41,845 nt of DNA from a virus (taxonomy: Duplodnaviria > Heunggongvirae > Uroviricota > Caudoviricetes), in IMG/VR virus record IMGVR_UViG_3300039314_000292; one strand, written 5' to 3'. How positions within the stretch are numbered: position 1 is the first letter of the stretch; every line of letters begins with the position of its first letter. A program made the translations under genes and the position numbers. Below the pieces are notes generated by a model. The model did no database searches and was not told the origin of the DNA. It worked only from the letters and a program-made list of their open reading frames with translations. Of the stretch, positions 6,611-36,880 are shown in pieces.

Positions 6611-6625
6611 TTACCTTTCAGGTGA
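6611..6625. promoter_or_regulatory. operator-like site TTACC-N5-GGTGA (near-perfect copy of the repeated palindrome)
   Basis: TTACCTTTCAGGTGA about 40 bp upstream of the LexA box; 4/5 match in second half-site. Confidence 0.45.
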
Positions 6626-6662
6626 TTTGCAAAACGTGCTGGATAGCAAACAAATTATTTGC

Positions 6663-6682
6663 TACTGTATAAATATACAGTT
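6663..6682. promoter_or_regulatory. LexA (SOS) box
   Basis: TACTGTATAAATATACAGTT: CTGT-N8-ACAG with AT-rich spacer, matches E. coli LexA consensus TACTGT(AT)4ACAGTA; 21 bp upstream of ATG 6702. Confidence 0.7.
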
Positions 6683-6701
6683 ATTGCATGGAGAAGATAA
6701 G

Positions 6702-6959
6702 ATGCAGCAGTATCACTATCCACTGGAAGACGGATTTACCGAAAGGATTCACACGCCGGGAGGCGTCAGGTCACTGGTGGAGGGATCGCACTTGATGAAA
6801 TTACTCCGGGATCTCGATAAGGATGGATTTAATGTCGATGGCCCACTTGCCGAACTGACTGCACTGATTAACTACGTCACCAGCTCACAGATGTCTATGC
6901 GGGATCTGCAAACACATCTCGACTATTGTGCCGAACAATTACGAAAACAAACCAGATAA
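6702..6959 (+). CDS. small SOS-controlled protein (85 aa), paralog of the antirepressor C-terminal domain; candidate antirepressor
   Basis: ATG 6702 with GGAGAA RBS, favoured over upstream ATG 6579; product aligns to C-terminus of 7275..7985 (LMKLL/LMNLL, DGFNVDG/DGHDVSG, AELT, RDLQTH/RDIQTH). Confidence 0.55.
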   Translation: MQQYHYPLEDGFTERIHTPGGVRSLVEGSHLMKLLRDLDKDGFNVDGPLAELTALINYVTSSQMSMRDLQTHLDYCAEQLRKQTR

Positions 6960-6988
6960 GATTTGAAATTACCAATAGGAGTGCTTAT

Positions 6989-7007
6989 ATTTACCTTTGC
7001 GGTAAAT
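6989..7007. promoter_or_regulatory. operator-like 19-bp perfect palindrome ATTTACC-N5-GGTAAAT
   Basis: ATTTACCTTTGCGGTAAAT; perfect 7-bp inverted half-sites; between small SOS gene and antirepressor gene. Confidence 0.6.
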
Positions 7008-7096
7008 TTACATCGCACTCCTCTTGTGCCATAGTAATCGGGCACTGGCAAAATCCAGTGCCGGGATTGGCGTCCCGGGTTACTAAGTGGCGCATA

Positions 7097-7118
7097 CCAC
7101 GCCAGACGTGGTTTTTTT
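7097..7118 (+). terminator. putative intrinsic terminator preceded by two strong hairpins
   Basis: CCACG-CCAGA-CGTGG followed by TTTTTTT; upstream hairpins GGCACTGG-CAAAAT-CCAGTGCC (7041..7062) and CCGGGA-TTGGCG-TCCCGG. Confidence 0.5.
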
Positions 7119-7274
7119 ATGCGTTAAGCACAGCTATATCCGAATTATGGTGGGCTGGGCAGGGGTCCGAAAGGACGCCGGTACCACTTAGGCCGGTACG
7201 CCAACCTTGTCCAGTTCACCACCAGTAATTGGCGTTGCGGTGGTGATTAAAATCACTAAGTGGAGATAACCACC

Positions 7275-7985
7275 ATGGCTAATGCTCAAACTGCCATCTT
7301 CAAATTTGAATCTGTTAACCCTATCCGTTCCATCATTATCGATGGCCGACCATGGTTTGTAGCCCAAGACGTTTGTAGTGCGCTGCGTATCCAAAACGTC
7401 ACCCAAGCACTTGAAAAACTGGATGATGATGAAAGGTCTATGTTCAACATAGGGCATGAACATCGTGCAATTTTTGACAGCCGAGTAAAAGAGATCAACA
7501 TTATCTCCGAGTCAGGCCTCTACACACTGATCCTCCGCTGCCGCGACGCAGTGACACCAGGCACTATCCCCTACCGCTTTCGTAAATGGGTTACAGGTGA
7601 GGTTCTTCCTCAGATCCGCCGCACCGGAAGTTACATTAAAAACTCGCTCCCGCAGGAAGAACGCATAAAGATGGTTGCCGACCAGGTAGCCAACGCCACG
7701 GCGTCAGCAGTAATGCAGGCGATGAAGATAGAGAACAAAACCTACAGTGCCCCGCTGAAGCCCGGCTACCGCAGTCTGATTCATTCCCCATCTGGTGTTC
7801 TCGGCCTGACGGAGCACTCACTGCTGATGAATCTGCTGAACCAGTTACAGGAAGACGGGCACGACGTATCGGGCGCGGCGGCGGAGCTGACCACCATGTT
7901 CTGCTACATCGTCGGTGTAAGCAAATGCCTGCGTGATATCCAGACGCACGCGGAGTACATCAACGACAAGGCTGGGTTCTTCTGA
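7275..7985 (+). CDS. Bro-N domain antirepressor-like protein (236 aa)
   Basis: ATG 7275 with GGAG RBS; N-terminal Bro-N signature (FKFESVNPIRSIIIDGRPWFVAQDVCSALRIQN...); C-terminal domain paralogous to 6702..6959. Confidence 0.8.
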   Translation: MANAQTAIFKFESVNPIRSIIIDGRPWFVAQDVCSALRIQNVTQALEKLDDDERSMFNIGHEHRAIFDSRVKEINIISESGLYTLILRCRDAVTPGTIPYRFRKWVTGEVLPQIRRTGSYIKNSLPQEERIKMVADQVANATASAVMQAMKIENKTYSAPLKPGYRSLIHSPSGVLGLTEHSLLMNLLNQLQEDGHDVSGAAAELTTMFCYIVGVSKCLRDIQTHAEYINDKAGFF

Positions 7986-8051
7986 CGGGCGGCGGCACAG
8001 GGATGTGCTTCTGACATAATCATTTGCGGTGTGATGTAGATTCACGTAAGA

Positions 8052-8066
8052 TTACCTTAAAGGTAA
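8052..8066. promoter_or_regulatory. operator-like perfect site TTACC-N5-GGTAA
   Basis: ATTACCTTAAAGGTAAACC immediately upstream of the 8093 operon start region. Confidence 0.55.
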
Positions 8067-8092
8067 ACCATGGGTTTACATGAGGAGGAGAT

Positions 8093-8302
8093 ATGGGATT
8101 TTGGTTCGCTCGTACAAAAACGAGGGATAATGCACCCAGCCCTCAGGCAAAAAATGCAGAAGTTCCGGCGTCAGCGCAGGTTAACAAGCGTGGTGGAGTA
8201 TATATCTCATCACAGCAAATTTCTGAGCTTCCTGAGGTTAAGGAGATGCGTCGTCTCGCTGCTGCAATTGTTAAACAGGATCTTGCCACTGTAAGGAAAT
8301 AG
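8093..8302 (+). CDS. small hydrophilic protein (69 aa), first gene of accessory operon
   Basis: ATG 8093 preceded by GAGGAGGAG; stop overlaps the GTG start of the next gene; chosen over overlapping alternate-frame ORF 8070..8294. Confidence 0.45.
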   Translation: MGFWFARTKTRDNAPSPQAKNAEVPASAQVNKRGGVYISSQQISELPEVKEMRRLAAAIVKQDLATVRK

Positions 8303-9168
8303 TGTTGTTAGCTCTTCTAATTATCCCCATTCTGGTTAGTGGTTATATTATGATAACCGCTAACCAGTATCATTATTTCCGTTTATACCGACATGAAGGC
8401 CAGCTTCTTTATATGAAAGTAGCTGCATTAGGTACATATTGCCTTGTTGCATCAGTAATAATTGCAGCCGCTATAAAATATAAATGGCCTGATTTTCACC
8501 TAGTTCACGATATGGTGGAAACTTTTAATGTAACATCAAAACCAGAAACAGATAGAATTTACATGTGGCTGCTTCTTCTCTCAGCCACATCCATTTGCTT
8601 CTCTTTGTGTTATGTGTCTGTTGTGTGGGTGAAAGATTTTCTTCTTGGTTGTTTTTATAAACGTGATATTTACGAGCAAAAAACAGAGGCAATGAAGGCC
8701 AGAGTACTGCGAAAAACTTACTCGCAAGGTTCTTTAGACTTACTATTGCTTGATGCTATTGAATCGGATCCTAAACGACCAATGTTGATTACTTTATCAT
8801 CAAACAAAGTGTATGTTGGAATAATAAATGGTTCTGGTGAACCAACGGAAAATCAGGGTCCGCATCAGCACATATCTTTTGTTCCTTTAATGTCAGGATA
8901 CAGGAACAAAGAAAACTTATCTGTCACATTCACTAATGCTTATCCAGGAGAAATACAGGTCAAGCGGACTGCAGCAATAAGAGGAATTAGCAGAAAGAAA
9001 GTGCCAGGACTTGAGATCATGGTGTCTATTGACGAAATAAGTTATATATCATGGTTTGATTTTGAAGTATATAAAGCAACAAATAACAAAGTAGAATCCA
9101 GGGGGCACGTTATTCGTGTTACCAAAAATGGAAGAAATATATATCAAAGAAATAGCAAAAAAGAATAG
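8302..9168 (+). CDS. low-GC inner-membrane protein (288 aa): 3 N-terminal TM helices plus about 170-aa soluble domain; candidate superinfection-exclusion/defence protein
   Basis: GTG 8302 with AAGGA RBS; markedly AT-rich versus flanking phage genes; TM segments LLALLIIPILVSGYIMI, VAALGTYCLVASVIIAAAI, IYMWLLLLSATSICFSLCYVSVVWV; terminator follows. Confidence 0.7.
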   Translation: MLLALLIIPILVSGYIMITANQYHYFRLYRHEGQLLYMKVAALGTYCLVASVIIAAAIKYKWPDFHLVHDMVETFNVTSKPETDRIYMWLLLLSATSICFSLCYVSVVWVKDFLLGCFYKRDIYEQKTEAMKARVLRKTYSQGSLDLLLLDAIESDPKRPMLITLSSNKVYVGIINGSGEPTENQGPHQHISFVPLMSGYRNKENLSVTFTNAYPGEIQVKRTAAIRGISRKKVPGLEIMVSIDEISYISWFDFEVYKATNNKVESRGHVIRVTKNGRNIYQRNSKKE

Positions 9169-9190
9169 CCCGCGCTGCGGGCTTTTTTGT
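9168..9190 (+). terminator. rho-independent terminator
   Basis: GCCCGC-GCT-GCGGGC followed by TTTTTT directly after stop of 8302..9168. Confidence 0.7.
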
Positions 9191-9260
9191 GGACGAAACA
9201 AAAGCCAGTGCTACACTCATTGACGCCACATTGAGGTGGCTTATAGATGGAAATTTCACA

Positions 9261-9422
9261 ATGAAAAAAGCATTTGCTGCACTGTTCGTTTTGTTGTCTC
9301 TGGTAGCTTCAACTCAGGCCTTTGCCGGTCGTTGTCAGCACGACAGCGATACCGCCGCTGACGGCTCCCGCTGCGGTGGGCGTTCTGCGGATTCCCGCCC
9401 GGGCGGCGGTGGCATTCGTTAA
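9261..9422 (+). CDS. small secreted Cys-containing peptide (53 aa), hypothetical moron
   Basis: Own sigma70-like promoter TTGACG(9220..9225)-N16-TATAGA(9242..9247); signal peptide MKKAFAALFVLLSLVASTQAFA; very short leader, no clear RBS, so low confidence. Confidence 0.35.
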   Translation: MKKAFAALFVLLSLVASTQAFAGRCQHDSDTAADGSRCGGRSADSRPGGGGIR

Positions 9423-9428
9423 AAACAA

Positions 9429-9444
9429 GGCCGCGAAAGCGGCC
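9429..9444 (-). terminator. rho-independent terminator for the minus-strand 186-aa gene
   Basis: GGCCGC-GAAA-GCGGCC with T-run on the minus strand (A-run on plus); adjacent to palindrome TGTGACATGTCACA (9445..9458). Confidence 0.6.
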
Positions 9445-9458
9445 TGTGACATGTCACA

Positions 9459-10019
9459 CTACATTGATATATGATTCATAAAGTAGCTTAAAGATTTACT
9501 TCCCAGAAAAGAAATTTCTTTTCCTGGATATGTCGCAATAATTGAGCATGACTTATCCCCGTTAGAGGTAACAAATCCTGAATAACCTACTTGTTCTTTA
9601 CCATTTTGTTGCTTGGCTAAAAAGTAGAGGTAGCTTATCTTTTTGCCCTCTGGGTAAAACTCTGCCAAACCAGTATCGGTGATTGAATATTTTATTCTCC
9701 CGCCTTGAGTAACGTTTTCCATCTCAAGTTTAGCTATGTCTTTTCTGTTGTATTCAGCATTGATTTTCCTTTCGAAATCAATGTTGTTTTCAAATGAGTA
9801 GGAAGCAACAGTCTGAATAGATGGGAACACGTTTATCTGGATGCCTCCACAGTCGGCACAGGTATAAAGGTATGAATCAGATGGAATCCCCATAAAAGAA
9901 AACTGAGTTACCTTAAATTTATCGCTATCTCCAAAGTATTGAAGTTCGCATTTAACATTTTGCCCTGCAAAAGAAAATGCAGACATCAATATTGAAACAA
10001 AAAATATAATTGCCTTCAT
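9459..10019 (-). CDS. low-GC secreted protein (186 aa), moron appended to virion-protein operon
   Basis: Signal peptide MKAIIFFVSILMSAFSFAG; AT-rich; starts 2 nt after stop of the 850-aa virion protein gene; own terminator. Confidence 0.7.
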   Translation of the reverse strand: MKAIIFFVSILMSAFSFAGQNVKCELQYFGDSDKFKVTQFSFMGIPSDSYLYTCADCGGIQINVFPSIQTVASYSFENNIDFERKINAEYNRKDIAKLEMENVTQGGRIKYSITDTGLAEFYPEGKKISYLYFLAKQQNGKEQVGYSGFVTSNGDKSCSIIATYPGKEISFLGSKSLSYFMNHISM

Positions 10020-10021
10020 TA

Positions 10022-17900: not shown

Positions 17901-20371
17901 CAGAATCCCCCAACAGTAAGGCGAGGAATAACGGCAAGAACAGACAGCGGCAACGGGTCAAGCTGACGGATTTTTACACGCCCGTTTTTGCCCCAGTTAC
18001 TGTCCAGTTTCACTTCTACTTTTCCGGTAGCATCATCAACAGGATCATCGTAGAACTCGAATTCACGCTGTGGATATTCGTACCATTTACCGCCGGGCGT
18101 AGTCGCCCAGATGCCGCGACTGGCATTCACAACCAGAGTAACGGAGGGGATCACCTGTTTTTTGTCCAGCAGCGTTTCCTGTCCGTTAATGTTGATATCC
18201 AGTGTTTCGAATTCAGCAGTTATTGGCAGGCCGATGTGCACTACAGCCCCCGGAGATTCCAGCGTGACGGCACCTCCGGAAACCACTTTCTGTGGTTCCA
18301 CGTTCGCATCAGAGAGAATGTTTACGGTCTGGCCTTCAAGATGAGACAGGCCTCCAAATGTCCGGCGCGCCATCTGCCAGTTCGTGGTGGCCACATTCCT
18401 GAGGGATGGCGGGACGTTCCTGTTAGCACGAACCACTACAGCGGTATTGCTGGTTACAGAAATAATGTCGCAACGTAATTCTTTTGACACTTCATCGCCA
18501 GTATCAGGAGCAGTTCCGGTATAAGGGAACTGTAGTTGCGCACCGACATCACTACTGGTGAAGTACGCACCACCAGAAACACTGATTGTATATTCCGCGC
18601 GGTAATCCCATTCGCCAGAACCACCAGTGATGGTCATCGTTCTGTCAGACGTATTTCTTCCATCATAGCTAAGGCCAGAATCAACAAAGAAAGCATCTTC
18701 ATCGCTGGTAAATAAACGGCTGGACAGTCTCTCGATGTATCTCACTGTTTGCCCGTTAACGGTTCTGTTAACGACGAAATACACCGCATCTTCATTGCCT
18801 TCGCTGATACTGCATGTGCTTTCATATTTTCCGGTACTGGATTGTGGTGCCCATGCAAAAACCTGCTGATCACGCAAATAGGTCATCACCAGTAATTTAC
18901 CGTCATCACGAATGCAGAAGGCACTGGAGTAAGGGACAATCGAGAAGCACCAGTCAACAATGCTGTGCTTCTGAAAAAGATGATTGGCAAGGATAGTAAG
19001 GTCGTTCCCCTGATAGCCGTCAACATCGAATGAGTAGGCCAGATCACGGACAACACTGCCTTTCTCCTGGACGAACAGAGCAATATTCGCCACGGCAATT
19101 GGTGGGACATTGCTCGAGCCATTTGATCCCTGAGAGCTGAATGCAAATGATGATGGGGTTAACACTTTGTTCTGGTCGCCGGTGATGACGTACTCACCTC
19201 CGGAAGTCAGCGCCACCAGAGAACCAACATCAATCAGGTGGCGGATCTCATTAACCTGACGCCCGGCATAGGTGTAGATAATTCTGTCGTCATCCTGCGT
19301 AGGATTGCTTTTGCCAAAATCCTTATAATCCCCGGTACGGCTGGCCCAGATAGTCTGAGGGAACGCAGTCGATGCGGCGAAGTAAAGACGCTGTTGATAA
19401 TAAACAACAGTGCCAGGATAACCATTAACACTGTTCCAGGCATATTTAGCCCATTTATAGCTGGCATTATCCTCGCCAACGACCTGCGAAGGGATATAGG
19501 AAATCACCTCAGCAGTTGCAGTAGTGCCATTTACAGCAGTTATACTGGCAATGCCAAAACCACTGTGCAGATACTCCCACTCAATGCCAGTATCATCATC
19601 ACCGGATCCGCCCCAGCCATCCCATGATGTGCCTTCTGTATGCGAAGGGCGCAAAGTACCTGTTTTGCCTGCTGTAACGGCGCGATAGTAGTTACTGTCT
19701 GCACGGCGAATATCGCCAATCGACGTACTCTTACTGGTTTCCCATACCGGCACAGAATCCACTGCAGGCTGTTCCAGATAGAACAATTTGCCTACCTGCT
19801 CCGCGCCAAAAATAGAGGCGCTTGCCGTTAACGTAATTGTCCCGGTGCTGGCGCTGGCATAAACCGTCACTGACTCGTCAATATTGATATCTTCAAATGG
19901 CCCGTTCTTCGTTACCACATCAACCAGTTGCCAGTTGTCATGCGCATAGCGACGCAACTCTTTCGGCGGGTATGCCGGATGAACCAGCGTAAGCACGTCG
20001 GCGCTTTGCGTGAATTTAATTCGGAACAGATCGGCTTCAGTATATGGCGTGGCAATTTCATAAATAACATTGCTGCTGTTCAGCACCAACGCACCATCTT
20101 TGATAACGCGCATGTACTGGTGTCCGAACTCCAGAGCATAGGTCTGAACCGTCGAGAACTGGAACGGGATCAGGCGGCATTTCCGATTTGGGTATTTGGC
20201 GGCACCGACAAAACGCGTACCAGGTCGATTCTCAACGCCGCCATACTGCCGCACGATAAAGTTATCGCACTTGCGCAATGCCACCTGGTACTTCGCCATG
20301 TCAATACGCCCGTACAACGACGGTCCAATCTCACCACCGGCAAAGCTGGGCTGGATCCAACTGATAGCCAT
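17900..20371 (-). CDS. tail tubular protein B-like (nozzle) (823 aa)
   Basis: Size and position after adaptor-like gene as in T7-type podovirus tails; assignment by synteny and memory only. Confidence 0.65.
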   Translation of the reverse strand: MAISWIQPSFAGGEIGPSLYGRIDMAKYQVALRKCDNFIVRQYGGVENRPGTRFVGAAKYPNRKCRLIPFQFSTVQTYALEFGHQYMRVIKDGALVLNSSNVIYEIATPYTEADLFRIKFTQSADVLTLVHPAYPPKELRRYAHDNWQLVDVVTKNGPFEDINIDESVTVYASASTGTITLTASASIFGAEQVGKLFYLEQPAVDSVPVWETSKSTSIGDIRRADSNYYRAVTAGKTGTLRPSHTEGTSWDGWGGSGDDDTGIEWEYLHSGFGIASITAVNGTTATAEVISYIPSQVVGEDNASYKWAKYAWNSVNGYPGTVVYYQQRLYFAASTAFPQTIWASRTGDYKDFGKSNPTQDDDRIIYTYAGRQVNEIRHLIDVGSLVALTSGGEYVITGDQNKVLTPSSFAFSSQGSNGSSNVPPIAVANIALFVQEKGSVVRDLAYSFDVDGYQGNDLTILANHLFQKHSIVDWCFSIVPYSSAFCIRDDGKLLVMTYLRDQQVFAWAPQSSTGKYESTCSISEGNEDAVYFVVNRTVNGQTVRYIERLSSRLFTSDEDAFFVDSGLSYDGRNTSDRTMTITGGSGEWDYRAEYTISVSGGAYFTSSDVGAQLQFPYTGTAPDTGDEVSKELRCDIISVTSNTAVVVRANRNVPPSLRNVATTNWQMARRTFGGLSHLEGQTVNILSDANVEPQKVVSGGAVTLESPGAVVHIGLPITAEFETLDININGQETLLDKKQVIPSVTLVVNASRGIWATTPGGKWYEYPQREFEFYDDPVDDATGKVEVKLDSNWGKNGRVKIRQLDPLPLSVLAVIPRLTVGGF

Positions 20372-25870: not shown

Positions 25871-26077
25871 TTACTGACCAAGCAGCGTTTTACCGCTGGT
25901 ATTAGCGGTTGATGTGTCGCCCTGAGAACCGGTAAGCAGCGTAGAACTACGACCAGCAGCAGCGCGACGGCGACGAGTTTCTTCGTCGCGGGCATCAACA
26001 ACGGCGGCATCCTGCTCCTGTGGTGCTGCCTGAACTTCTGGTGTTGCAGGCACTGATGGTGAGCTACCCATGCACAT
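25871..26077 (-). CDS. small protein upstream of portal (68 aa)
   Basis: GGAGTC RBS 8 nt upstream of ATG; Ala/Pro/charged composition. Confidence 0.45.
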   Translation of the reverse strand: MCMGSSPSVPATPEVQAAPQEQDAAVVDARDEETRRRRAAAGRSSTLLTGSQGDTSTANTSGKTLLGQ

Positions 26078-26145
26078 ATCAATGACTCCGTACGCAATTA
26101 AATTATTACCAATTTAACCACATATGATTTATTTATCGTAGATAC

Positions 26146-26182
26146 TTGACATTTAACGCACTAATTATTACCTTTCAGGTAA
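26146..26182 (+). promoter_or_regulatory. putative promoter (TTGACA -35) overlapped by perfect TTACC-N5-GGTAA operator, facing the tRNA
   Basis: TTGACA at 26146..26151; operator TTACCTTTCAGGTAA at 26168..26182 overlaps the -10 position. Confidence 0.45.
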
Positions 26183-26504
26183 GCAAAGAGTTCATTCCGG
26201 TTATTAACCTGACTGGCTTGTCGTTAAATTGAACAGGTGGGGTGAGCTTTTATTTTGAGCAGTACGGTGTATGGCACATGCGCCGATAGCGGTCTGGATA
26301 CGTTTAAGGGGCACCCTCCCTTGCTCGGGCAAACGAACCAGGTAGCCGGAATGTGCAAGTCGAGCGGTTTTATTCCGCGCACGGGGATTCACCATCCCGG
26401 CGATTCGGTGTGACGCCTCGGAAGAGACGAGGGTACAACGATGAGAGCATTTATGGAGCCGCGACAAAGTGTGGCGCCTTAACAGGCTAAGTGCTCTCAG
26501 CGTT

Positions 26505-26581
26505 GTGGCATTAGCTCAGTTGGACAGAGCAACCGCCTTCTAAGCGGTTGGTCGCAGGTTCGAATACTGCATGCCACGCCA
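26505..26581 (+). tRNA. tRNA-Arg (anticodon UCU), phage-encoded
   Basis: Cloverleaf readable by eye: 7-bp acceptor GTGGCAT/ATGCCAC, D-stem GCTC/GAGC, anticodon stem ACCGC/GCGGT with loop CTTCTAA, T-loop TTCGAAT, 3' GCCA; one T-stem mismatch (G53-A61). Resembles argU (memory). Confidence 0.85.
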
Positions 26582-26769: not shown

Positions 26770-26785
26770 GCCTGATGACCACAAA

Positions 26786-26803
26786 TTACCTTAAAGGTAT
26801 AAT
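26786..26803 (+). promoter_or_regulatory. operator-like site overlapping a TATAAT -10 element of the moron promoter
   Basis: TTACCTTAAAGGTAT (26786..26800) with TATAAT at 26798..26803. Confidence 0.5.
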
Positions 26804-26804
26804 C

Positions 26805-27653
26805 ATGAAAAACTTTAAGGTAATTAGTATGTTCGAATCGTTCAAAGAGCTGTTTTCATCTACTGCCAATACTGCCGTGCATCGAGCTAAAAACCCTGTG
26901 CTTGGTGCTTTTGTTATGTCTTGGTGCGCCTTCAACTGGAAATCACTTCTTTATCTATTTTTTAGCAAATCAAATATAATAGATAAAATTTCATACATCT
27001 CAGATAACAGCACATGGAAAACTGTTATGTTTTATCCATGCTTATCTGTAATTACTATCTGCTGCCTATTACCATGGGTAAACAATATCATTAACGTATG
27101 GCAAGCAAAGCCTCTTGATAATAATGACTCAATCGAAAACCACCGGAAGGCAAGAAAAATACAACGTGAAACACGGCTACAGAGATTGCTGGCTAAAAAA
27201 GACATTACTTACGAAAAAGTAAAAACAGGCGCTGAAAAAAACATTCAAGACATGAAAGAGGAAATAATTCTTTCAAAAGACAGAATGGGACAACTCACAT
27301 CTGAATTGAAAGAGAGGGAGACAGAACTGCGCGCAGCACAAGCTCGTATTTTAGAATTATCTAAGGTTATTGATGAAACAACATCTAAACTAGAAAATCT
27401 AGAAAAAACTCACAAAAATTTAAAAAACGAATATGAGTCCTATAAGAAAAACATTCCTTTGGCAACAAATAATACAATTGCTAATGGGCTTGCAGGTCTA
27501 AAATCATTACAAGACTTTAATGAGTCCGTAAAGAAACTTGGCGTTACTGGAATTAACAATCCAGAAATCAGTACATTATTGAATAATCCTCTAGTAAATA
27601 TAAATGGTGATTTAAATTCCACCTATCAAAGAAAATCAAAAACACAAAAGTAA
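26805..27653 (+). CDS. low-GC membrane protein with two TM helices and long coiled-coil domain (282 aa); candidate abortive-infection/exclusion protein
   Basis: Strongly AT-rich; antisense to the late operon between terminase and portal; TM segments then K/E/L-rich heptad-like region. Start at 26805 or 26829 (promoter geometry favours 26829). Confidence 0.7.
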   Translation: MKNFKVISMFESFKELFSSTANTAVHRAKNPVLGAFVMSWCAFNWKSLLYLFFSKSNIIDKISYISDNSTWKTVMFYPCLSVITICCLLPWVNNIINVWQAKPLDNNDSIENHRKARKIQRETRLQRLLAKKDITYEKVKTGAEKNIQDMKEEIILSKDRMGQLTSELKERETELRAAQARILELSKVIDETTSKLENLEKTHKNLKNEYESYKKNIPLATNNTIANGLAGLKSLQDFNESVKKLGVTGINNPEISTLLNNPLVNINGDLNSTYQRKSKTQK

Positions 27654-27656: not shown

Positions 27657-29126
27657 TCATTCAAATGGGTCATAGTCTGTTATAGCCCTGCCCTGCTGCT
27701 GCCGTGGGTCATTAGTTTTCTTGGCTACCGGGAACGCAAACGTCAGCAGTAGCGCATCGCCTTTACCAGGAGAACGCCCAAGCCGCTCCTTGATATCTTC
27801 CTTCGGTTCGATAACGATTTTACCGTCCACTCGAACTTTGTACTCTGCCGCCGACAGGTCGTCCGCTGTTTCCTGGTCATCAAGCATGCCGCCAAGCCTC
27901 AGCCATGTCTTGCATGAGTTGAACATCTCCCCACGCTTGTTGAGCATCTGCGGGTCAGTAGACGCACCACCAAACGGAACAAGTTGCCATGTACGACCCC
28001 AGCCGTCACCGATTGACTTCAGACCAGTTCCGTAACCGAAGTCGATGAACACTGCGTCAGCCTGGTACTGGTCTTCAAAGTCAGCGATACGCTTCGCCAT
28101 TATCAGATCGTCAGTGGTCTTGTTGCCAGTCCACAGCACCTTACTGTGTAGCCCCTGCCGCAGGTATATCACAGCGTCATCAACGCCGGAGTATGCCGGG
28201 TCAACGCCGATTATCACCGGAGCATGTGCAACCTGCGCAGCGGTTACCACCCGTTTCATTGCCTCGTCAGTAAGACCGGTAGGGATAAACTGCAATTCAG
28301 ATGCATCAGGGAATATGCCACGCACACGGATTTTAACGAAGTCGCTGTCTTCCCCGTAGTCATCAACCCATTTCTGCAACTGCTGTTTGTTGGTACCTTC
28401 CACCGTCCGACTGTCAATCTGCGCAGTTTTCCAGCGGTGTTTATACTTGCGGAAACATTCACGGAAACGTCCGGTATTACGCGTCGGGTTTCCGAACGCC
28501 ACCCAGATAATCTCAGTGTCTTCGTCCGTAAGCGCACCCTCAGCAACTTCCCACACCAGATCCGCAATGTTCGACGCTTCATCGAATACCACGATGATGC
28601 GTTTGCGCTCGTTGTGTAGTCCGGCGAATGCCTCAGTGTTGTGCTCAGACCAGGGGATTGCGTCAGCTCGCCACCGCTTGTCGTGCCCAGGATCATTGCT
28701 GTACATCGCAGTAGCGGTACAGGTAAACCAGTCTTTCGTGATAGCAAGGTTCGACCACTTGATAATTTCCGGCCAGGTCTTCGTTCGTAGCTGGTTGTCG
28801 GTGTTGGCGGTCACCACGACCTTACAATCCTCGCAAGTGGACATGCCCCAGTTGATCAGCATTGAGATGAATGCGGATTTACCAATACCGTGACCAGAAG
28901 CGCGTGCCAGCATAAGCGGCTGATAGCGCGTCTCTGGATTCTGCAGGTGATCACGTATCTCTCGGAACGCATCGGCCTGCCACTGACGTGGACCGGTGGC
29001 ATGTGCCAGTTCAGTACCCTCTTCCCCCCACGGGAACGCATAGAGGGCATAGCCAAGCGGATCGTGAGTGAACCCTGCAATATCCTCGATCAACTGCTCT
29101 TCAGGAGATAACGCTGTATCTGTCAC
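27657..29126 (-). CDS. terminase large subunit (489 aa)
   Basis: GTG start; Walker A ARASGHGIGKS, Walker B IIVVFDEAS, C-terminal nuclease-like region; coupled to small subunit. Confidence 0.9.
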   Translation of the reverse strand: MTDTALSPEEQLIEDIAGFTHDPLGYALYAFPWGEEGTELAHATGPRQWQADAFREIRDHLQNPETRYQPLMLARASGHGIGKSAFISMLINWGMSTCEDCKVVVTANTDNQLRTKTWPEIIKWSNLAITKDWFTCTATAMYSNDPGHDKRWRADAIPWSEHNTEAFAGLHNERKRIIVVFDEASNIADLVWEVAEGALTDEDTEIIWVAFGNPTRNTGRFRECFRKYKHRWKTAQIDSRTVEGTNKQQLQKWVDDYGEDSDFVKIRVRGIFPDASELQFIPTGLTDEAMKRVVTAAQVAHAPVIIGVDPAYSGVDDAVIYLRQGLHSKVLWTGNKTTDDLIMAKRIADFEDQYQADAVFIDFGYGTGLKSIGDGWGRTWQLVPFGGASTDPQMLNKRGEMFNSCKTWLRLGGMLDDQETADDLSAAEYKVRVDGKIVIEPKEDIKERLGRSPGKGDALLLTFAFPVAKKTNDPRQQQGRAITDYDPFE

Positions 29127-29719
29127 TGATTACCATCCTGACGTTCTTTGAGTCGCTTCCTGGCTGCTGCTATGCGATCAGCAATTGTCACATTCACATT
29201 AACATCCAGACGTTCTTTGAACGCGTTGACATCAACATGCTTACCAATCAGCTCAAGGTTCTTCACCTTGTCAGGCCATTTAATTTTTTTGAGGATTGTC
29301 TCTATCGAATCCTCGTTCATGTTCATGATGGTCGATGACAGATCAAAGCCACTAAGCGTAGTGCGCCAGATTTTCGGCCACTCACGGATTGGTTTAAGGC
29401 TCCCATCGTCGTTGAGGATGTCGATCACGTCCATCTGGTCGATCTCCACCAGGCGCATGAGAACGTAATCAGCACTGACGCGCATTCGTTTGTTGCGCTC
29501 CTCCATCAACTCGGCAATCCGTTTTTGAATGCGTTCATCGCGCATCATGACACTAGCTTTAACTGCCGCTGTATTTGGGGAGAATCCTGCGTTAATCGCT
29601 GCCTGAGTCTGGTTTTCAGGCGTTTTGATGTATGACTGGCAATAAGCCTCCTGCATTGCTGTTAGTGGCTTAAATTGCGTTGATTTGCGTTTATAGGTTT
29701 TAGGTTCAGCAGGCATCAT
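29123..29719 (-). CDS. terminase small subunit (about 198 aa)
   Basis: Start moved to tandem ATGs near 29714..29719 (GGTGG RBS) because the track N-terminal extension overlaps an intrinsic terminator; basic helical protein directly upstream of TerL. Confidence 0.7.
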   Translation of the reverse strand: MMPAEPKTYKRKSTQFKPLTAMQEAYCQSYIKTPENQTQAAINAGFSPNTAAVKASVMMRDERIQKRIAELMEERNKRMRVSADYVLMRLVEIDQMDVIDILNDDGSLKPIREWPKIWRTTLSGFDLSSTIMNMNEDSIETILKKIKWPDKVKNLELIGKHVDVNAFKERLDVNVNVTIADRIAAARKRLKERQDGNQ

Positions 29720-29761
29720 AACCACCGTGGTAATAGTTACCGTTGTGGTAATAGTACCATG

Positions 29762-29788
29762 CAAAATAAAGCCGCCATAGTTGGCGGC
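29762..29788 (-). terminator. rho-independent terminator between early and late regions
   Basis: Minus strand GCCGCCA-ACTA-TGGCGGC followed by TTTATTTTG. Confidence 0.6.
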
Positions 29789-29837
29789 AGTATTCAAACC
29801 CCATCAAATTCATCATGCATAATCTACTCGTGACATG

Positions 29838-30179
29838 TCACACTATTAATTTCGTTTCATGCCAGCCTTTAGTCACCCAGCATTGCGAGTCACCATTACA
29901 CGGGCATGAATTAACTGGAACTCTCTCGCCGCACTTACCGCAACATTTTCTGCTGATCGATTTTATACGCCCGCGCACGCGTGCATCATCCTGGCGGATC
30001 AGTAACGCTATATACTCACCAAATTCGTAAGGCGCACGCCCGGGGCGACGCGTGGCACAGTTACGCTCCAGCATTTCAATTTCCTGAGCATCAAGCACAA
30101 TTTCCAGCTTACGCACACCAGATGCAGCTTGTCTGGCTCTCTGAGCGGCTTTGCGCTCTGCTGCTGATTTAGCCATCAA
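29838..30179 (-). CDS. hypothetical protein with Cys-rich C-terminus (113 aa)
   Basis: Last gene of early (nin-like) block; CxxC...CxC cluster suggests zinc ribbon. Confidence 0.5.
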   Translation of the reverse strand: MMAKSAAERKAAQRARQAASGVRKLEIVLDAQEIEMLERNCATRRPGRAPYEFGEYIALLIRQDDARVRGRIKSISRKCCGKCGERVPVNSCPCNGDSQCWVTKGWHETKLIV

Positions 30180-31003: not shown

Positions 31004-31004
31004 A

Positions 31005-31400: not shown

Positions 31401-31402
31401 AG

Positions 31403-31591
31403 CTATTTCACCTTAATCTCAACATTTCGCAGCTTTAGCTCTACTGGCAGGTCTGACTTTCCGGTTAATGCTAATGCGAGATTTTCTGGAGTAATGAGAG
31501 CAGTTATTGTTCTACCCATCGCAAGGCGGATAATCAGCCTTATCTCTTCGTCACAAGCGCCAGGGCGAATAATTGATATTTGTCCGTTCAT
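31403..31591 (-). CDS. hypothetical small protein (about 62 aa)
   Basis: Internal Met start avoids overlap with upstream gene; weak evidence. Confidence 0.35.
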   Translation of the reverse strand: MNGQISIIRPGACDEEIRLIIRLAMGRTITALITPENLALALTGKSDLPVELKLRNVEIKVK

Positions 31592-31592
31592 C

Positions 31593-32731: not shown

Positions 32732-33330
32732 TGGTTGCCTCCTTTGCGAAGCTGGGCAGCAAAGTCAACTAACCACTCAGTCATTTCAACCTTCCCTACC
32801 AGGTCTGAACCAGGGTGCATACAGCAATCACTCTGCGCCGCTTTGAAATCCTTATACTCATATTCTTGGACCACCAGATTTTTTGCAGCTTCTATAGCAG
32901 CATCCACCCCCTGCGCCCGGACTTCAGCCAGGAAAGCATCGGTGGCTGGCATATTTCCTGTTGCCTTCATGGCCTCCAAAATAACCAGAACGCCATCTCG
33001 CCCAACCACCTCAGCGATAACCTCGGTGTTGTCGCCAACAACATCGCAGAATGCCTGAACTGCCTTACGAGCCAGCTCATTCTCCGCCGCCAGCACCGAA
33101 AACTTCTCGTGCGCCAACTTAACAGCCGAATCAGCCTGCTTAATTGACTCAGTCGCTCTCTGGTGGTCTTCGGCCAGCGCATTAGCACGCACCAGTTGCA
33201 CTTCCAGTTGCGTTGCCAAATCGCTGATCAGCTTTGCCACACTGCGCATATCAACGGCACCACATTCTGCTTTCATTTCCGAAGCCATCTCATGCCCGGC
33301 GGCAACTAACACTTTGATATTACTTTCCAT
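32728..33330 (-). CDS. hypothetical phage protein (200 aa)
   Basis: Coupled ORF (4-nt overlap) in early operon. Confidence 0.5.
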   Translation of the reverse strand: MESNIKVLVAAGHEMASEMKAECGAVDMRSVAKLISDLATQLEVQLVRANALAEDHQRATESIKQADSAVKLAHEKFSVLAAENELARKAVQAFCDVVGDNTEVIAEVVGRDGVLVILEAMKATGNMPATDAFLAEVRAQGVDAAIEAAKNLVVQEYEYKDFKAAQSDCCMHPGSDLVGKVEMTEWLVDFAAQLRKGGNQ

Positions 33331-33391
33331 CTTTACCCTCGCTTATCCACATAACTTATTGATTACATTGATAACTAAAAAGATCGTCGAT

Positions 33392-33739
33392 TCAGAACTC
33401 TTCGATGTTCCAGCCGCCACCTACTTTCTTTGGTTTAACCGTTACCCCGATGATTCGGAACGGATACTGATCTGCGGCTACTTTGGTTTTCACCCTGGCG
33501 TCGTCGGTCCAGAATCCCCCTTTCACTTCGTGCAGTTCCATCTCTCCGGTGGCGAGCATCACAGCGAAATCGGGCGTATAGAACGTGTTGTCAGCTAACC
33601 GCAGCTTAATACCCTCGAATCGATACCAGGCGATTTCCCCTGCACGTTTACGCTGCTCAAGGTGCTGGCAATACGCAGATTCTGTTTTGTTCATCTGGCC
33701 TGTTTTGAGTCGACCAAGAGCCTGTATCTGTTTTCTCAT
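33392..33739 (-). CDS. DUF1064-like PD-(D/E)XK nuclease, possible junction resolvase (115 aa)
   Basis: Motifs TPDF ... ELHEVKG consistent with PD-(D/E)XK; position after replication genes. Confidence 0.55.
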   Translation of the reverse strand: MRKQIQALGRLKTGQMNKTESAYCQHLEQRKRAGEIAWYRFEGIKLRLADNTFYTPDFAVMLATGEMELHEVKGGFWTDDARVKTKVAADQYPFRIIGVTVKPKKVGGGWNIEEF

Positions 33740-33742
33740 GAT

Positions 33743-33819
33743 TTACCTCTAAGGTAATTAAAAACCACATAAGACACGAAATCAATAGAGCTTAGAATAT
33801 TTTGTTACCTTATAGGTAA
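33743..33819. promoter_or_regulatory. two perfect operator-like sites TTACC-N5-GGTAA (33743..33757 and 33805..33819)
   Basis: ATTTACCTCTAAGGTAATT and GTTACCTTATAGGTAATT between the P-like gene terminator and the next gene start. Confidence 0.6.
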
Positions 33820-33828
33820 TTATTGAGG

Positions 33829-33851
33829 CGTAAAAAAATGCGCTATCGCGC
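33829..33851 (-). terminator. rho-independent terminator after the P-like gene
   Basis: Minus strand GCGC-GATA-GCGC followed by ATTTTTTTAC. Confidence 0.55.
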
Positions 33852-33856
33852 TGGTA

Positions 33857-34633
33857 TTACTTGATAAATCCTGCCGCCTTTCCCCGCCTGTATTCCTCCA
33901 TCAGCCACTGCGCCGGTGTTATTCCCCCAAGGGTGGCGGCGTTAGGCATGCACCCGAAACTTCGCCCTGGTGGATGGTAAACGTCTCTCCCTGTGTCCGG
34001 AGGTGTACTCATGGGCTCTGGCTTTGCCTGTATGCTGATCACCGGATCGGGTATCTGCTGTCCGGAAGCCACCTTTTTCGCCCAATCATCGAGCAGCCTG
34101 CGCGCGTGTTTCTCAACCTCAATCTCGCTAAGCTGGCGCTGATACATTGCACGGCGGGTATCACATACGACCCAGTACATAACCGGATGCCGCCACGGGA
34201 ATCTTTCGGGACCACCAGGATATAAACTTTTTTCCTTGCTGTACCGGTGAAACTCCGCCATCACATCGTCAATGGTGACGCCAAGAACCATCTTGCTGTC
34301 TTTGCACCACTTGATGAATTGCCCTGGCGACGGCCAGAACGGAGATTCACTGGCGCGGGCGTGGCGCATACCAGCGTTAACCTGTTCCATTGTAGTGATC
34401 CCATTCTCCAGAAACGCAAGCATCCATTGCTTACGGAATTCATTAAGTTTGTTCTGCTCCCTTATGGTCGAAACGCTTGCAGGAAATGCAGCCTGTAACT
34501 GGACAAATAGTTCATTGAAAATTCTAGCAACCTGCTCCTTTTTGCCATTACTGTCACGCCGCTCTTCATGCACAGCAACACCATGCTCACGTAAGCGATC
34601 GTACTCATTGAGAAGTTCTGGAGTTGATTTCAT
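33857..34633 (-). CDS. lambda P-like replication protein (helicase loader) (258 aa)
   Basis: Segment FPASVSTIREQNKLNEFRKQWMLAFLENGITTMEQVNAGMRHAR...PSPGQF closely matches remembered lambda P sequence. Confidence 0.85.
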   Translation of the reverse strand: MKSTPELLNEYDRLREHGVAVHEERRDSNGKKEQVARIFNELFVQLQAAFPASVSTIREQNKLNEFRKQWMLAFLENGITTMEQVNAGMRHARASESPFWPSPGQFIKWCKDSKMVLGVTIDDVMAEFHRYSKEKSLYPGGPERFPWRHPVMYWVVCDTRRAMYQRQLSEIEVEKHARRLLDDWAKKVASGQQIPDPVISIQAKPEPMSTPPDTGRDVYHPPGRSFGCMPNAATLGGITPAQWLMEEYRRGKAAGFIK

Positions 34634-35435
34634 CCCACACCCCTTCTATCCAGTCAGTGTTATTCCAGTCAAGCTCATCGCTTTTCCCGGCATTTTTTGA
34701 TTTTCCCCTGATATGATTTACGTGCCTGGCGAATTTTTGTTCCCACTGAACCTGCGTGAACACTTTGCCCTCAGCCATCCAGTAATCCCGGAATGCAGCA
34801 AGTTCAGCAGGTGTAAATTCCGGTTCCGGCAGGGCCGTTCCCCACAGCGCAGCACGCCGCCGAAAATCTGGCGACGGTAGCCAGCCATCTGTCATCGGAA
34901 ATTTCCCGATGGGTTCACTCAGGCCATCCAGAAATTCAGGTTCTGCCACCTGCAACGGCGTACTGTTCGCTTCACTGGTCGGAGCACCCTCGCGCACGTG
35001 CGCTATGTGTGGGGTTTTATATATATCTTCCTCTTCCTCTTCCTCTGGTAACTCCTTTTGTAACGCTGTTGGCGTTACTTTTTGCGTTACTCGTTTTCGA
35101 TGCTCTGCCACTCTTCTATTCGTAAGTGCACGTTTTTTCGATGATTCTCCATTGTGTCGCTCAAAGTTTGGAAGAATTAGTTTGCCGTCATGATAAGCAA
35201 GCCATCCGACGCTAATGAGGGCGTCAGCAAATCCTGTAATAAAAGCGAGTCTATCAAGTACTCCTTTTGTAACGCTGCCAGCGTTACCGTCTATTGTTTG
35301 CTGGTCAGCCCATGCCCATATACGAACCAGCTTTCCAAGAACAGCATCTGGATCAATACCCAGAATTTCTGCTATCTGAAAAATTTCAGGTTTATCAGGA
35401 GTGATAACTTCAACCTTAATCCAGCTGCTTGCCAT
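34605..35435 (-). CDS. lambda O-like replication initiator (about 276 aa) containing iteron-like repeats
   Basis: ATG at 35433..35435 with GAGGGG RBS; poly-Glu linker; internal 19-bp palindromes; directly upstream of the P-like gene. Confidence 0.7.
   Translation of the reverse strand: MASSWIKVEVITPDKPEIFQIAEILGIDPDAVLGKLVRIWAWADQQTIDGNAGSVTKGVLDRLAFITGFADALISVGWLAYHDGKLILPNFERHNGESSKKRALTNRRVAEHRKRVTQKVTPTALQKELPEEEEEEDIYKTPHIAHVREGAPTSEANSTPLQVAEPEFLDGLSEPIGKFPMTDGWLPSPDFRRRAALWGTALPEPEFTPAELAAFRDYWMAEGKVFTQVQWEQKFARHVNHIRGKSKNAGKSDELDWNNTDWIEGVWDEINSRTSQ
35060..35287. repeat. two iteron-like direct repeats each containing palindrome GTAACGC-N5-GCGTTAC (35060..35078 and 35269..35287); candidate ori
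   Basis: Shared 18-nt ACTCCTTTTGTAACGCTG followed by inverted half-site; adjacent TATATATA/(CTT)n tract at about 35018..35044. Confidence 0.45.
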
Positions 35436-35628
35436 AGGTTTCCCCTCTTGCACTCTTTAGTGCACAAGCAAATTCATTACGATGGCGGTTGGCGCTATTC
35501 ATTGCACATTCAACACATGTTCCGTTCAGAACATACCTTTCAGAGAGATGGCCGTGACGGCACCGCTTTCCTGTGAAATAGCGATTTAACCCGGCTTTTG
35601 CGGCCTCCATTCTGGTTACTATCTTCAA
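35416..35628 (-). CDS. small basic protein with putative zinc-binding C-x-H...C-x-x-C motif (70 aa)
   Basis: Between Cro-like and O-like genes (CII-like position); no family recognised. Confidence 0.4.
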   Translation of the reverse strand: MKIVTRMEAAKAGLNRYFTGKRCRHGHLSERYVLNGTCVECAMNSANRHRNEFACALKSARGETYGKQLD

Positions 35629-35706
35629 TTTTTCCGCCCCTTTTTGTTATTGATATTGGCTATTTTGCACAATTGGAAAATTTGATCAACCAGATTTGGT
35701 TTTTTA

Positions 35707-35721
35707 TTACCTTTAAGGTGC
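35707..35721. promoter_or_regulatory. operator-like site TTACC-N5-GGTGC (imperfect)
   Basis: Downstream of terminator following the Cro-like gene. Confidence 0.35.
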
Positions 35722-35726
35722 GAATA

Positions 35727-35755
35727 GATATGAAAAGACCGCCGGATGGCGGTCT
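35727..35755 (-). terminator. rho-independent terminator after Cro-like gene
   Basis: Minus strand AGACCGCC-ATCC-GGCGGTCT followed by TTTTCATAT. Confidence 0.55.
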
Positions 35756-35776
35756 ACAGAGGGTTGTGGCTGGATA

Positions 35777-36007
35777 TCATGAGTAGAAGAAGTATGCCAG
35801 TTCTGCTTTTGAGCGCAGCCATTGTCTTGTTTTACAGGCTTTAAAAAGCCCATTCATCAATACTTTACCTGGCATTTTGCGCTTACCTGTTAAGTGAGTC
35901 TGGATATAGTGACTCGTCGTTCCGGCTTCCTGTGCGAAGGCTTCACGCTCATCCGGAGTAAGTGCAAGCCAGTGCTTTTTGAAATCGAAATGTCCGTTAT
36001 CGCTCAT
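35777..36007 (-). CDS. Cro-like small DNA-binding regulator (76 aa)
   Basis: Divergent from repressor gene across a three-operator region; first gene of the minus-strand early operon. Confidence 0.6.
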   Translation of the reverse strand: MSDNGHFDFKKHWLALTPDEREAFAQEAGTTSHYIQTHLTGKRKMPGKVLMNGLFKACKTRQWLRSKAELAYFFYS

Positions 36008-36043
36008 AGCTATTGCCTGATATTTATTTCAGATAATAAATAT

Positions 36044-36106
36044 TCACCCATAAGGTAACAAAAATCAAGGATAGTTACCTATGAGGTGCATTTACCTGTT
36101 GGGTAA
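36044..36106. promoter_or_regulatory. OR-like operator cluster: three TTACC-N5-GGTAA-type sites (36044..36058, 36075..36089, 36092..36106)
   Basis: TCACCCATAAGGTAA, TTACCTATGAGGTGC, TTACCTGTTGGGTAA between divergent cro-like and cI-like genes. Confidence 0.65.
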
Positions 36107-36161
36107 TATTGCTTTAAATTGAATCATCTACTGATTCATATATGAGGCGATTTTCCAGAAA

Positions 36162-36746
36162 ATGAAAAGTATCCAGGACGTCCGCAGGCAAAATCTCAAC
36201 GACTTGATCGACCGTGAATTCAATGGTGTTCAGACGCGGATGGCAGAAAAACTTGGAACTCAGGCAAATCTGGTAAACCGCTGGGCTCTTGGCAAGAAGG
36301 TTATCGGCGATCAGGTTGCACGAAAAATTGAAGCTGCCGCCAATAAACCCCGTAACTGGCTTGATATTGATCGCTCGCTTTCTCAGGAGGGTTTTCAGCC
36401 TGTCGGCCCGAGTGATATAGGTCAGCTGGCGGCTCACAACCTGGAACGCTGGATGAGCGAAAGCCGCGACCTTTCAACGCAGGGAAAACTACACCGCGCA
36501 TCCGGCGTCGCCCAGGTGACAATCAGCCGCCTGTTAAACAATGAGGTCAGCGTTTCCATTTCCACCCTGGAGAATGTTGCATCCGCATTCGGGCGTCACG
36601 GCTATGAATTACTGATTCACCCGCACGACCCTGCAACCATCAACTATGATCGCTCGCGCTACGCATTGTTACCCGAAACCGAGAAAGCAAAGATCGAAAG
36701 TTACATTGAATTTGTCATCAACCAGAACGAAAAAAACAAACAATAA
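36162..36746 (+). CDS. CI-like repressor with two HTH (XRE-type) domains, no S24 autopeptidase domain (194 aa)
   Basis: HTH QTRMAEKLGTQANLVNRWALGKK and a second HTH-like segment; flanked by operator clusters; own terminator. Confidence 0.65.
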   Translation: MKSIQDVRRQNLNDLIDREFNGVQTRMAEKLGTQANLVNRWALGKKVIGDQVARKIEAAANKPRNWLDIDRSLSQEGFQPVGPSDIGQLAAHNLERWMSESRDLSTQGKLHRASGVAQVTISRLLNNEVSVSISTLENVASAFGRHGYELLIHPHDPATINYDRSRYALLPETEKAKIESYIEFVINQNEKNKQ

Positions 36747-36766
36747 AATCATATTTTTCAGTAAGT

Positions 36767-36790
36767 AAGCCGCCTTCTGGCGGCTTTTTT
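36767..36790 (+). terminator. rho-independent terminator after repressor gene
   Basis: AAGCCGCC-TTCT-GGCGGCTT followed by TTTT. Confidence 0.7.
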
Positions 36791-36803
36791 ATTGCCTATT
36801 CGA

Positions 36804-36880
36804 TTACCTAATGGGTAATTTTTTTAACTCATATCTATTGACATCAAACCAGATACGCATAATTATTACCTCAACGGTAA
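36804..36880. promoter_or_regulatory. OL-like operator pair: perfect sites at 36804..36818 and 36866..36880
   Basis: GATTACCTAATGGGTAATT and TATTACCTCAACGGTAACA upstream of the recombination operon. Confidence 0.6.

Follow-up and report, generated by a model that had tools for sequence, protein, structure and literature searches.

The palindrome TTACC-N5-GGTAA is very probably the operator of a repressor of the SPC32H/epsilon15 type (Rep), which is predicted to bind it at nearly every promoter of the phage analyzed here. The DNA is a viral stretch of 41,845 nucleotides (IMG/VR record IMGVR_UViG_3300039314_000292) and is referred to as the window. Its sequence places the window among the prophages of the genus Uetakevirus (phiV10/epsilon15 group), with HEMP4, TL-2011b, vB_EcoP_ZX5 and phiV10 as the nearest records (96–98.5% identity over the regions compared). 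An earlier note on this DNA had proposed that accessory genes (morons) and a tRNA are placed under the repressor of the early genes. Site placement, Rep homology and synteny support this proposal, which needs to be widened: the predicted regulon reaches the late genes as well as the morons and the tRNA, because the gaps at 6611 and 26168 also face the tailspike gene and the head operon and the site at 29737 precedes terS. Scattered repressor sites are already known for the genus, because the epsilon15 record labels the same sites as repressor-binding, and we regard the arrangement as a known design rather than a discovery. The value of the analysis lies in the confirmation and finer anatomy of a principle that is recorded for epsilon15 and known from P1 and L5. 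New here, and phage-specific, are the sites of the Bro-N cassette, 8052 and 26786; the geometry of two promoter brackets is a finer description. The phage offers an example of one antirepressor-controlled repressor that seemingly sits on nearly every promoter, as opposed to two control regions with a downstream cascade, and this arrangement would account for the accessory cassettes and the tRNA unit being tied to the lysis/lysogeny switch.

The window contains nine perfect copies of the palindrome (6991, 8052, 26168, 29737, 33743, 33805, 36092, 36804 and 36866), and its longer consensus is ATTACCT-N3-AGGTAAT. The expected number is 0.01, or 0.005 by 200 dinucleotide shuffles, which agrees with the earlier estimate of well below one by chance. 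Eight of the perfect copies had been listed in the earlier note, and all eight stand; the ninth, at 29737 upstream of terS, had been overlooked. The five near-matches given there also exist, with one mismatch at 6611, 26786 and 36044 and two mismatches at 35707 and 36075. Matches with up to two mismatches number 41, compared with 11.9 expected. On a gene map based on synteny, non-coding DNA makes up 7.45% of the window, and the intergenic share is 9/9 for perfect copies, 4/5 for one-mismatch copies and 2/27 for two-mismatch copies (35707 and 36075). A weight matrix was trained on the sites of four phiV10-type genomes, the nine perfect sites of the window included. These nine score 20.5–27.0 bits, 26786, 6611 and 36044 score 17.2–19.3 bits, and 36075 and 35707 score 11.0 bits, while the next hits, 9643 (within a gene) and 29719, reach at most 8.4 bits. 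The scan, which the earlier note had suggested, thus separates 14 sites (11.0–27.0 bits) from the background (≤8.4 bits), namely the 13 sites listed before and 29737. The operator set comprises at least 14 sites at 10 loci, and nearly every transcription unit has one. The motif string gave no match in a text search of the literature.

Eight genomes were compared: the window, TL-2011b, phiV10, Tyrion, epsilon15, SPC32H, the Klebsiella phage BUCT711 and a Serratia prophage (20.6 kb). The same half-sites are present in 8/8 of them, and the full genomes have 8–11 perfect sites each at syntenic positions; the Serratia prophage has 7 in its 20.6 kb, together with a Rep that is 54% identical and carries a 5-residue insertion after the helix. 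The syntenic positions are upstream of terS, upstream of gp3/head, in the ant/tailspike gap, after ant, at the left and right operators, after the cro terminator and, as a pair, after the replication genes. The lysis cassette and int of most relatives are preceded by sites too. Synteny also backs the weak sites of the window. Perfect equivalents exist for 36075 in epsilon15, SPC32H and BUCT711 and for 6611 in the same three phages and Tyrion, and 35707 has an equivalent with a single mismatch in phiV10 and in Tyrion. The epsilon15 GenBank and RefSeq records list seven scattered 'protein_bind: repressor, lysogeny' sites (12, 2931, 19895, 32479, 32554, 32616 and 35906), of which 12 (12-27), 2931 (2931-2947), 19895 (19895-19911) and 35906 correspond to 29737, 26168, 6611 and 33805 of the window; the phiV10 and TL-2011b records have no repressor-binding features annotated. 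The recognition-helix segment NL(V/I)(N/S)RW of Rep is kept in all aligned homologues but P0082 (NVISRW), which fits the invariant half-site. Genes contain 25 two-mismatch matches, roughly double the number that shuffling predicts for matches of this class as a whole (11.3, sd 3.6, maximum 22). Not one of the 25 is conserved as a site, and their excess is probably an effect of composition or codon usage.

The main repressor gene, rep (36162-36746, plus strand), encodes a protein of 194 residues that was assigned by homology to phiV10 gp40, ZX5 ORF21 and PDB entry 5D50. The identity to the first two is 100%, and Rep aligns end to end with SPC32H Rep (5D50; phmmer E 4e-42, residues 1–190). A Pfam search returned helix-turn-helix (HTH) families only, HTH_3 at residues 106–147 and a YdaS-type HTH at residues 21–61, and no Peptidase_S24 hit. 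By its homology to SPC32H Rep, the protein is predicted to have an N-terminal HTH domain for DNA binding, a middle HTH-like domain for dimerisation and a C-terminal tetramerisation domain. Lacking the S24 autocleavage domain, Rep does not belong to the lambda-type CI repressors; its C-terminus aligns to the SPC32H tetramerisation domain, and induction is predicted to proceed by antirepressor, not by autocleavage. In SPC32H Rep, which is built of DNA-binding, dimerisation and tetramerisation domains in this order, the last is of a type linked to DNA looping and the two domain pairs lie ~100 Angstrom apart; its repression mechanism is described as not extensively characterised (PMC9986798). Overexpression of ZX5 ORF21 abolished free phage and reduced endolysin transcripts by 99.99% and holin transcripts by 99.97%, in a study that mapped no operator (PMC9782041). 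Rep is the predicted binder of the palindrome because the densest clusters flank rep on both sides, as with classical repressors. The divergent gene for a small cro-like repressor of 76 residues (35777-36007, minus strand; PHROG 35 'transcriptional repressor', E 5.6e-13) occupies the position of epsilon15 gp39 and phiV10 gp41, and its product probably binds the same palindrome too.

The right operator region (OR), between the divergent rep and cro-like genes, has three sites at 36044-36058 (one mismatch), 36075-36089 (two mismatches) and 36092-36106 (perfect), with spacings of 31 and 17 bp, and this three-site layout is conserved in seven genomes. The predicted cro promoter, TTGTTA-17-TATTAT (36061..36033, minus strand), has the first of them in its spacer. 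Downstream of rep, the pair of the left operator region (OL) brackets the predicted early-left promoter (PL) of the recET operon, TTGACA-17-AATTAT. On the plus strand, the rep terminator (36767-36786) is followed by the distal operator (36804-36818), the -35 element TTGACA (36838-36843), the -10 element AATTAT (36861-36866) and the proximal operator (36866-36880). A second bracket, on the minus strand, begins after the terminator of the P gene and consists of the distal operator (33805-33819), the -35 element TTGATT (33785-33780), the -10 element TTTAAT (33762-33757) and the proximal operator (33743-33757), which includes the Shine-Dalgarno sequence of a DUF1064 gene (33392-33739). The two brackets match base for base in their layout: terminator, distal operator, 19 nt, -35, 17 nt, -10 and proximal operator. 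In both, the first T of the proximal operator is the last T of the -10 element, +1 is covered and the operator starts are 62 bp apart. The architecture is conserved column by column across the relatives, and the bracket after P is kept in seven genomes even with another downstream gene (DUF1064 or RuvC). Over all loci compared, the distance between neighbouring perfect sites, each unique pair being counted once, is 62 bp (n=19), 63 bp (n=2), 17 bp (n=4) or 75–76 bp (n=4). The assignment of three sites to OR, two to OL, two to the region after P and singles elsewhere had been made before and is correct.

The remaining sites are single or dispersed. The operator at 6611-6625 (one mismatch) lies in the divergent gap between the tailspike gene and the small antirepressor gene ant. 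After ant, the operator at 6991-7005 begins on the last base of the -10 element of the predicted promoter TTGAAA-17-TATATT (6963-6991, plus strand), and the isrK/C4/Bro-N cassette lies downstream; an operator after ant is conserved in TL-2011b, phiV10, Tyrion and BUCT711. This site had been assigned to the promoter of the Bro-N gene, and its placement supports the assignment, with the correction that an isrK-like RNA and a C4-like RNA lie in between. Three accessory genes (8070-8294, 8302-9168 and 9189-9422, plus strand) follow the operator at 8052-8066, which overlaps the ribosome-binding site of the first one. TL-2011b has an operator (33333) at the equivalent junction after Bro-N, where the downstream genes differ from those of the window. 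The operator at 26168-26182 contains the -10 element of the predicted plus-strand promoter TTGACA-17-TACCTT (-35 at 26146-26151), which reads toward a structured RNA and tRNA-Arg(UCU) (26505-26581, plus strand). TTGAC(A/C)-17-TACCTT is kept in seven genomes with or without the tRNA, as TTGACA in all but BUCT711 (TTGACC). On its other side, this operator precedes the head operon (gp3, 25871-26077, minus strand). A weak operator with two mismatches (35707-35721) lies just past the cro terminator (35755-35736), upstream of the replication genes.

The operator at 26786-26800 (one mismatch) falls in the spacer and the -10 element of the predicted promoter ATGACC-17-TATAAT (26775-26803, plus strand), which is followed by an accessory gene for 282 residues (26805-27653). 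This promoter is homologous to a conserved site upstream of int, TTACCTTAAAGGTAT, in seven other genomes of the genus (six aligned). The int-upstream element reads GGTGAC..TTACC.TAAAGGTATACT, and both there and at 26775-26803 the A-to-T 'mismatch' (GGTAT) makes the -10 element. In the relatives, the element is found at 26870 in phiV10, 135 in TL-2011b, 26882 in epsilon15, and 12620 and 35440-35470 in BUCT711; the copy of the phage studied here falls just outside the window.

On the minus strand, a perfect operator (29737-29751) and a one-mismatch copy (29719-29733) are located in the leader of terS, past a terminator (29788-29771) and ahead of the start of the gene (29716), and the site is conserved in six genomes. 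The region between the gene of a PHROG 536 regulator (29838-30179) and terS contains, on the minus strand (29771-29841), the promoter-like sequence GTGACA-18-CATGAT and the strong terminator at 29788-29771, followed by the operator. By analogy, this layout resembles lambda PR'-tR' and suggests that the late genes may be controlled by antitermination.

Two antirepressor systems are predicted for the prophage, a small Ant under LexA control and a Bro-N protein under C4/Rep control. The ant gene (6702-6959, plus strand) encodes 85 residues that are 87% identical to SPC32H Ant, and a LexA box that matches the consensus (TACTGTATAAATATACAGT, 6663-6681) lies 21 nt upstream of it and is kept in seven genomes. 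According to Kim and Ryu in 2013 and Kim et al. in 2016, Ant is reportedly under LexA control and takes the Rep tetramer apart. The second system consists of an isrK-like RNA (7042-7118; Rfam 67.7 bits, gathering score 50), a C4 antisense RNA (7143-7226; 66 bits, gathering score 45) and the gene of a Bro-N family protein (7260-7985), all on the plus strand. As read from its sequence, this stretch is a P1 immI-like antirepressor cassette with a predicted operator for the resident repressor: a C4 RNA lies upstream of an antirepressor gene, and the predicted promoter at 6963-6991 ends on the operator at 6991. One operator of the P1 repressor C1 likewise controls the operon of the c4 antisense RNA and the antirepressor.

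We propose the following mechanism. Rep, a double-HTH protein that lacks an autocleavage domain, would act as a tetramer, and one palindrome would hold a pair of its N-terminal HTH domains. The sites are of three kinds: the triple at OR, the two promoter brackets (recET/early-left and the genes after P) and the singles on -10/+1 or in the spacer. Single operators would serve the isrK/C4/Bro-N cassette, the three-gene accessory cluster, the unit of structured RNA and tRNA-Arg, and the gene for 282 residues, and others would act in the ant/tailspike gap and the terS leader. In the lysogen, Rep would directly silence every major transcription unit, and at paired sites it would probably bind cooperatively, with one tetramer clamping the promoter. 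After SOS cleavage of LexA, the small Ant would be made and would disable Rep, so that all units are derepressed together. Since Rep is also predicted to control the Bro-N antirepressor cassette, this derepression would reinforce itself, on the same principle as in P1. A bolder version, to which we give less than even odds, is that Rep is a loop-forming global silencer whose tetramers clamp promoters at exactly 62 bp and possibly bridge distant sites, and whose regulon includes an undescribed, widespread structured RNA (~26262-26504) that P1, lambdoid phages and Stx2c phages also have and that would be made from the promoter at 26146. The 14 graded natural operators, with strict 62-bp pairs, 17- and 31-bp spacings and a half-site, lend themselves to the study of tetrameric Rep of the SPC32H type.

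Several observations weigh against the assignment of all these sites to Rep-controlled promoters. The perfect site at 29737 follows a terminator and lies in a leader without a recognisable promoter. Several of the promoters are weak matches to the consensus, and in scans of these regions promoter-like hits are no commoner than in shuffled sequence; the promoters are predicted from conservation and register because of this result. In the window no operator of the lysis cassette was found between 3079 and 3386, and in the relatives this site is perfect in epsilon15 (24704) and has one mismatch in phiV10 (24692), Tyrion and SPC32H. The sites at 35707 and 36075 match the motif poorly. The half-site TTACC/GGTAA never varies in the eight genomes, even with the Serratia Rep at 54% identity, and the recognition helix hardly varies. 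The clades differ in the spacer at OR/OL, where four phiV10-type genomes have a central GC content of 34% and three epsilon15-type genomes 9% (p = 0.018); at the dispersed sites the values are 27% and 18% (p = 0.30).

The alternatives concern the sites themselves, the protein that binds them and the level at which they act. The dispersed copies could be passengers, either a duplicated promoter/operator module or junction linkers that favour cassette exchange in a phage that encodes RecE/RecT, with only OR and OL being occupied. The sites do lie at points where gene content changes (after Bro-N, 8052 compared with 33333 of TL-2011b; after P, DUF1064 or RuvC), the promoter at 26786 is a copy of the int-upstream promoter, and the motif CATATGTGGTT recurs adjoining three sites. 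However, the ten half-site bases are kept down to a Rep identity of 42–54% even though the flanks and the 5 bp in the centre drift, the register to the -10 element and the start codon is preserved, and every perfect copy is intergenic. Because half-site bases, register and intergenic placement are all kept, selection appears to act on the site itself, and we consider the passenger explanation unlikely; a linker role could coexist with regulation. It is more unlikely still that another phage protein binds the palindrome instead of Rep, such as the Cro-like protein alone, the PHROG 536 regulator upstream of terS or Bro-N. The phage does encode several DNA-binding proteins, and Rep is linked to the motif through sequence comparison, but the densest clusters stand on both sides of rep, the epsilon15 authors assigned their sites to the repressor, and the motif persists in relatives with different Bro-N or regulator genes, always together with a Rep of conserved recognition helix.

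Least probable of all, to the point that we give it hardly any weight, is an action of the sites as RNA, in which a hairpin of the 5´ leader hides the Shine-Dalgarno sequence (AGG of AGGTAA) and controls translation. At three sites (8052, 26786 and 33743), the right half and the ribosome-binding site coincide in part, 3–6 nt before the ATG, and the predicted hairpin energies are -3.3 to -7.2 kcal/mol. These hairpins are nevertheless short and weak, and many sites lie upstream of the -35 element and are untranscribed in the relevant direction. The same five bases occur at all perfect sites and none is compensated at the mismatched sites; this lack of compensatory changes in the stems points to base-specific protein contacts rather than pairing, and the hairpin reading was rejected for the weak stems and the absent compensation. 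A further alternative applies to the terS copy alone (29719-29751), where the tandem CTATTACCAC repeats might be a pac site for the small terminase subunit and not an operator. The position directly before terS, after a terminator and not a promoter, would suit a pac site, as would the A at position 6, which is found in all clades and sets this copy apart from the other phiV10-type sites. Against this, 29737 is a perfect operator match, its epsilon15 equivalent is annotated as repressor-binding, and the Serratia relative has one perfect site there, on the terS ribosome-binding site, without the tandem repeat. We consider the pac explanation improbable, if somewhat less so than the other alternatives. 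The reading of the palindrome as the operator of Rep is preferred for the set as a whole.

The closest known systems belong to the same genus. Epsilon15 (repressor gp38; AY150271.2 / NC_004775.2) shares the half-sites and the syntenic positions, whereas its Rep is 42% identical, its spacers are more A/T-rich and it has three OL sites. Its record leaves OR, the lysis-cassette site and the proximal site after the replication genes without a repressor-binding label, and the window goes beyond it with the sites at the isrK/C4/Bro-N cassette, 8052 and 26786. SPC32H (PDB 5D50 and 5D4Z) is alike in its three-domain Rep, its Ant with a LexA box, the operator motif and layout and a tRNA-Arg at the same place. 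In contrast, its Rep is 42% identical, and the window adds a second, Bro-N-type antirepressor cassette with a C4 RNA under an operator. The Rep-Ant features of Uetakevirus are found in the window, including a Rep architecture without S24, an ant gene that adjoins the tailspike gene and is preceded by a LexA box, operators in the gap between rep and cro as well as downstream of rep, and copies at the positions annotated in epsilon15.

More distant parallels are P1, L5 and lambda. The C1 repressor of P1 has 22 operators dispersed over the genome (PMC8546580). P1 and the window therefore share the principle of one repressor with many dispersed operators, and the C4 RNA family is also present in the window, but C1 is an unrelated protein that has 17-bp asymmetric operators and the modulators Coi and Lxc. 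In L5 and other Cluster A phages, 20–30 stoperators spread through the genome silence the prophage; they are asymmetric, monomer-bound, oriented with transcription and mostly off promoters, and they block elongation (PMC6550527). The perfect sites of the window are, in contrast, palindromic, all intergenic and mostly on predicted promoters, and only the terS-leader site resembles an L5-type roadblock. With lambda, the window shares the divergent rep/cro arrangement with three sites in between, another cluster past rep that lies at the early-left promoter and, probably, cooperative binding of separated sites. Unlike in lambda, the OL sites of the window are 62 bp apart and bracket the promoter, and at least eight further sites lie outside the immunity region; the earlier note had called the layout more dispersed than the classic two-cluster lambdoid one.

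Within the ~320 nt between the operator at 26168 and tRNA-Arg lies a conserved non-coding element of ~170–250 nt (~26262-26504, plus strand). It is a structured RNA candidate and the most novel thing in the region. A 19-mer of the element is present in at least 120 IMG/VR viral contigs, and related sequence is found in 83 phage records, including P1, P7, mEp460, the cdtI phage and Stx2c phages. The P1/P7 copy fills the unannotated trnI-ban gap, and the mEp460 copy is just downstream of a cI-like gene. Six helices with 27 pairs are backed by covariation in 21 diverse copies, where 97.5% of the cells are paired, compared with 89.9% in shuffles (0/500 reach the observed value), and double-change cells number 36 compared with 10.9 (0/500); slid controls are 23–39% paired. 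The element has no Rfam 15 match at E ≤1. A coding reading of the leader (an ORF like phiV10p04) was rejected, since the copies differ in length by numbers not divisible by 3, their substitutions lack a 3-periodicity and 47/122 of them have stops in all six frames. A stem of 16–17 bp, CAACGAUGAGAGCAUU ... AGUGCUCUCAGCGUUG (~26440-26504, plus strand), ends exactly at the tRNA 5´ end and encloses a hypervariable insert of 40 to >100 nt, and its closing pair co-varies (UA/GC/CG). Tyrion retains the stem without the tRNA. The stem may be an RNase III processing site, and the epsilon15 record annotates RNase III sites in this region.

The other genes are arranged around these control regions. The recET/early-left operon comes after rep, and the replication genes come after the cro-like gene. 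The late genes are on the minus strand, in the order terS (29123-29716), terL, head and tail genes, tailspike gene (3387-6506) and lysis genes (1266-3078). The lysis genes are abutted by the tailspike gene, with no O-antigen-modification gene between. Both ends of the window coincide with gene boundaries, where it appears to have been cut: the integrase ORF (40595-41845, minus strand) starts at the last base of the window, and another ORF starts at base 1.

A further motif, (CA)TATGTGGTT, has three exact copies (~0.3 expected) at 6571-6579, 26116-26124 and 33763-33771, all on the minus strand, which is that of the late genes. They lie upstream of the tailspike gene, of the head operon and of the post-P promoter, respectively, and a variant with one mismatch (3140-3148, minus strand) lies upstream of the lysis cassette. 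At the head operon, the block ATATGTGGTTAAATTGGTAATAATTTAA is invariant in seven genomes, and its GGTAA half-site is exactly 62 bp from the operator at 26168. The motif is a candidate late-promoter or activator element.

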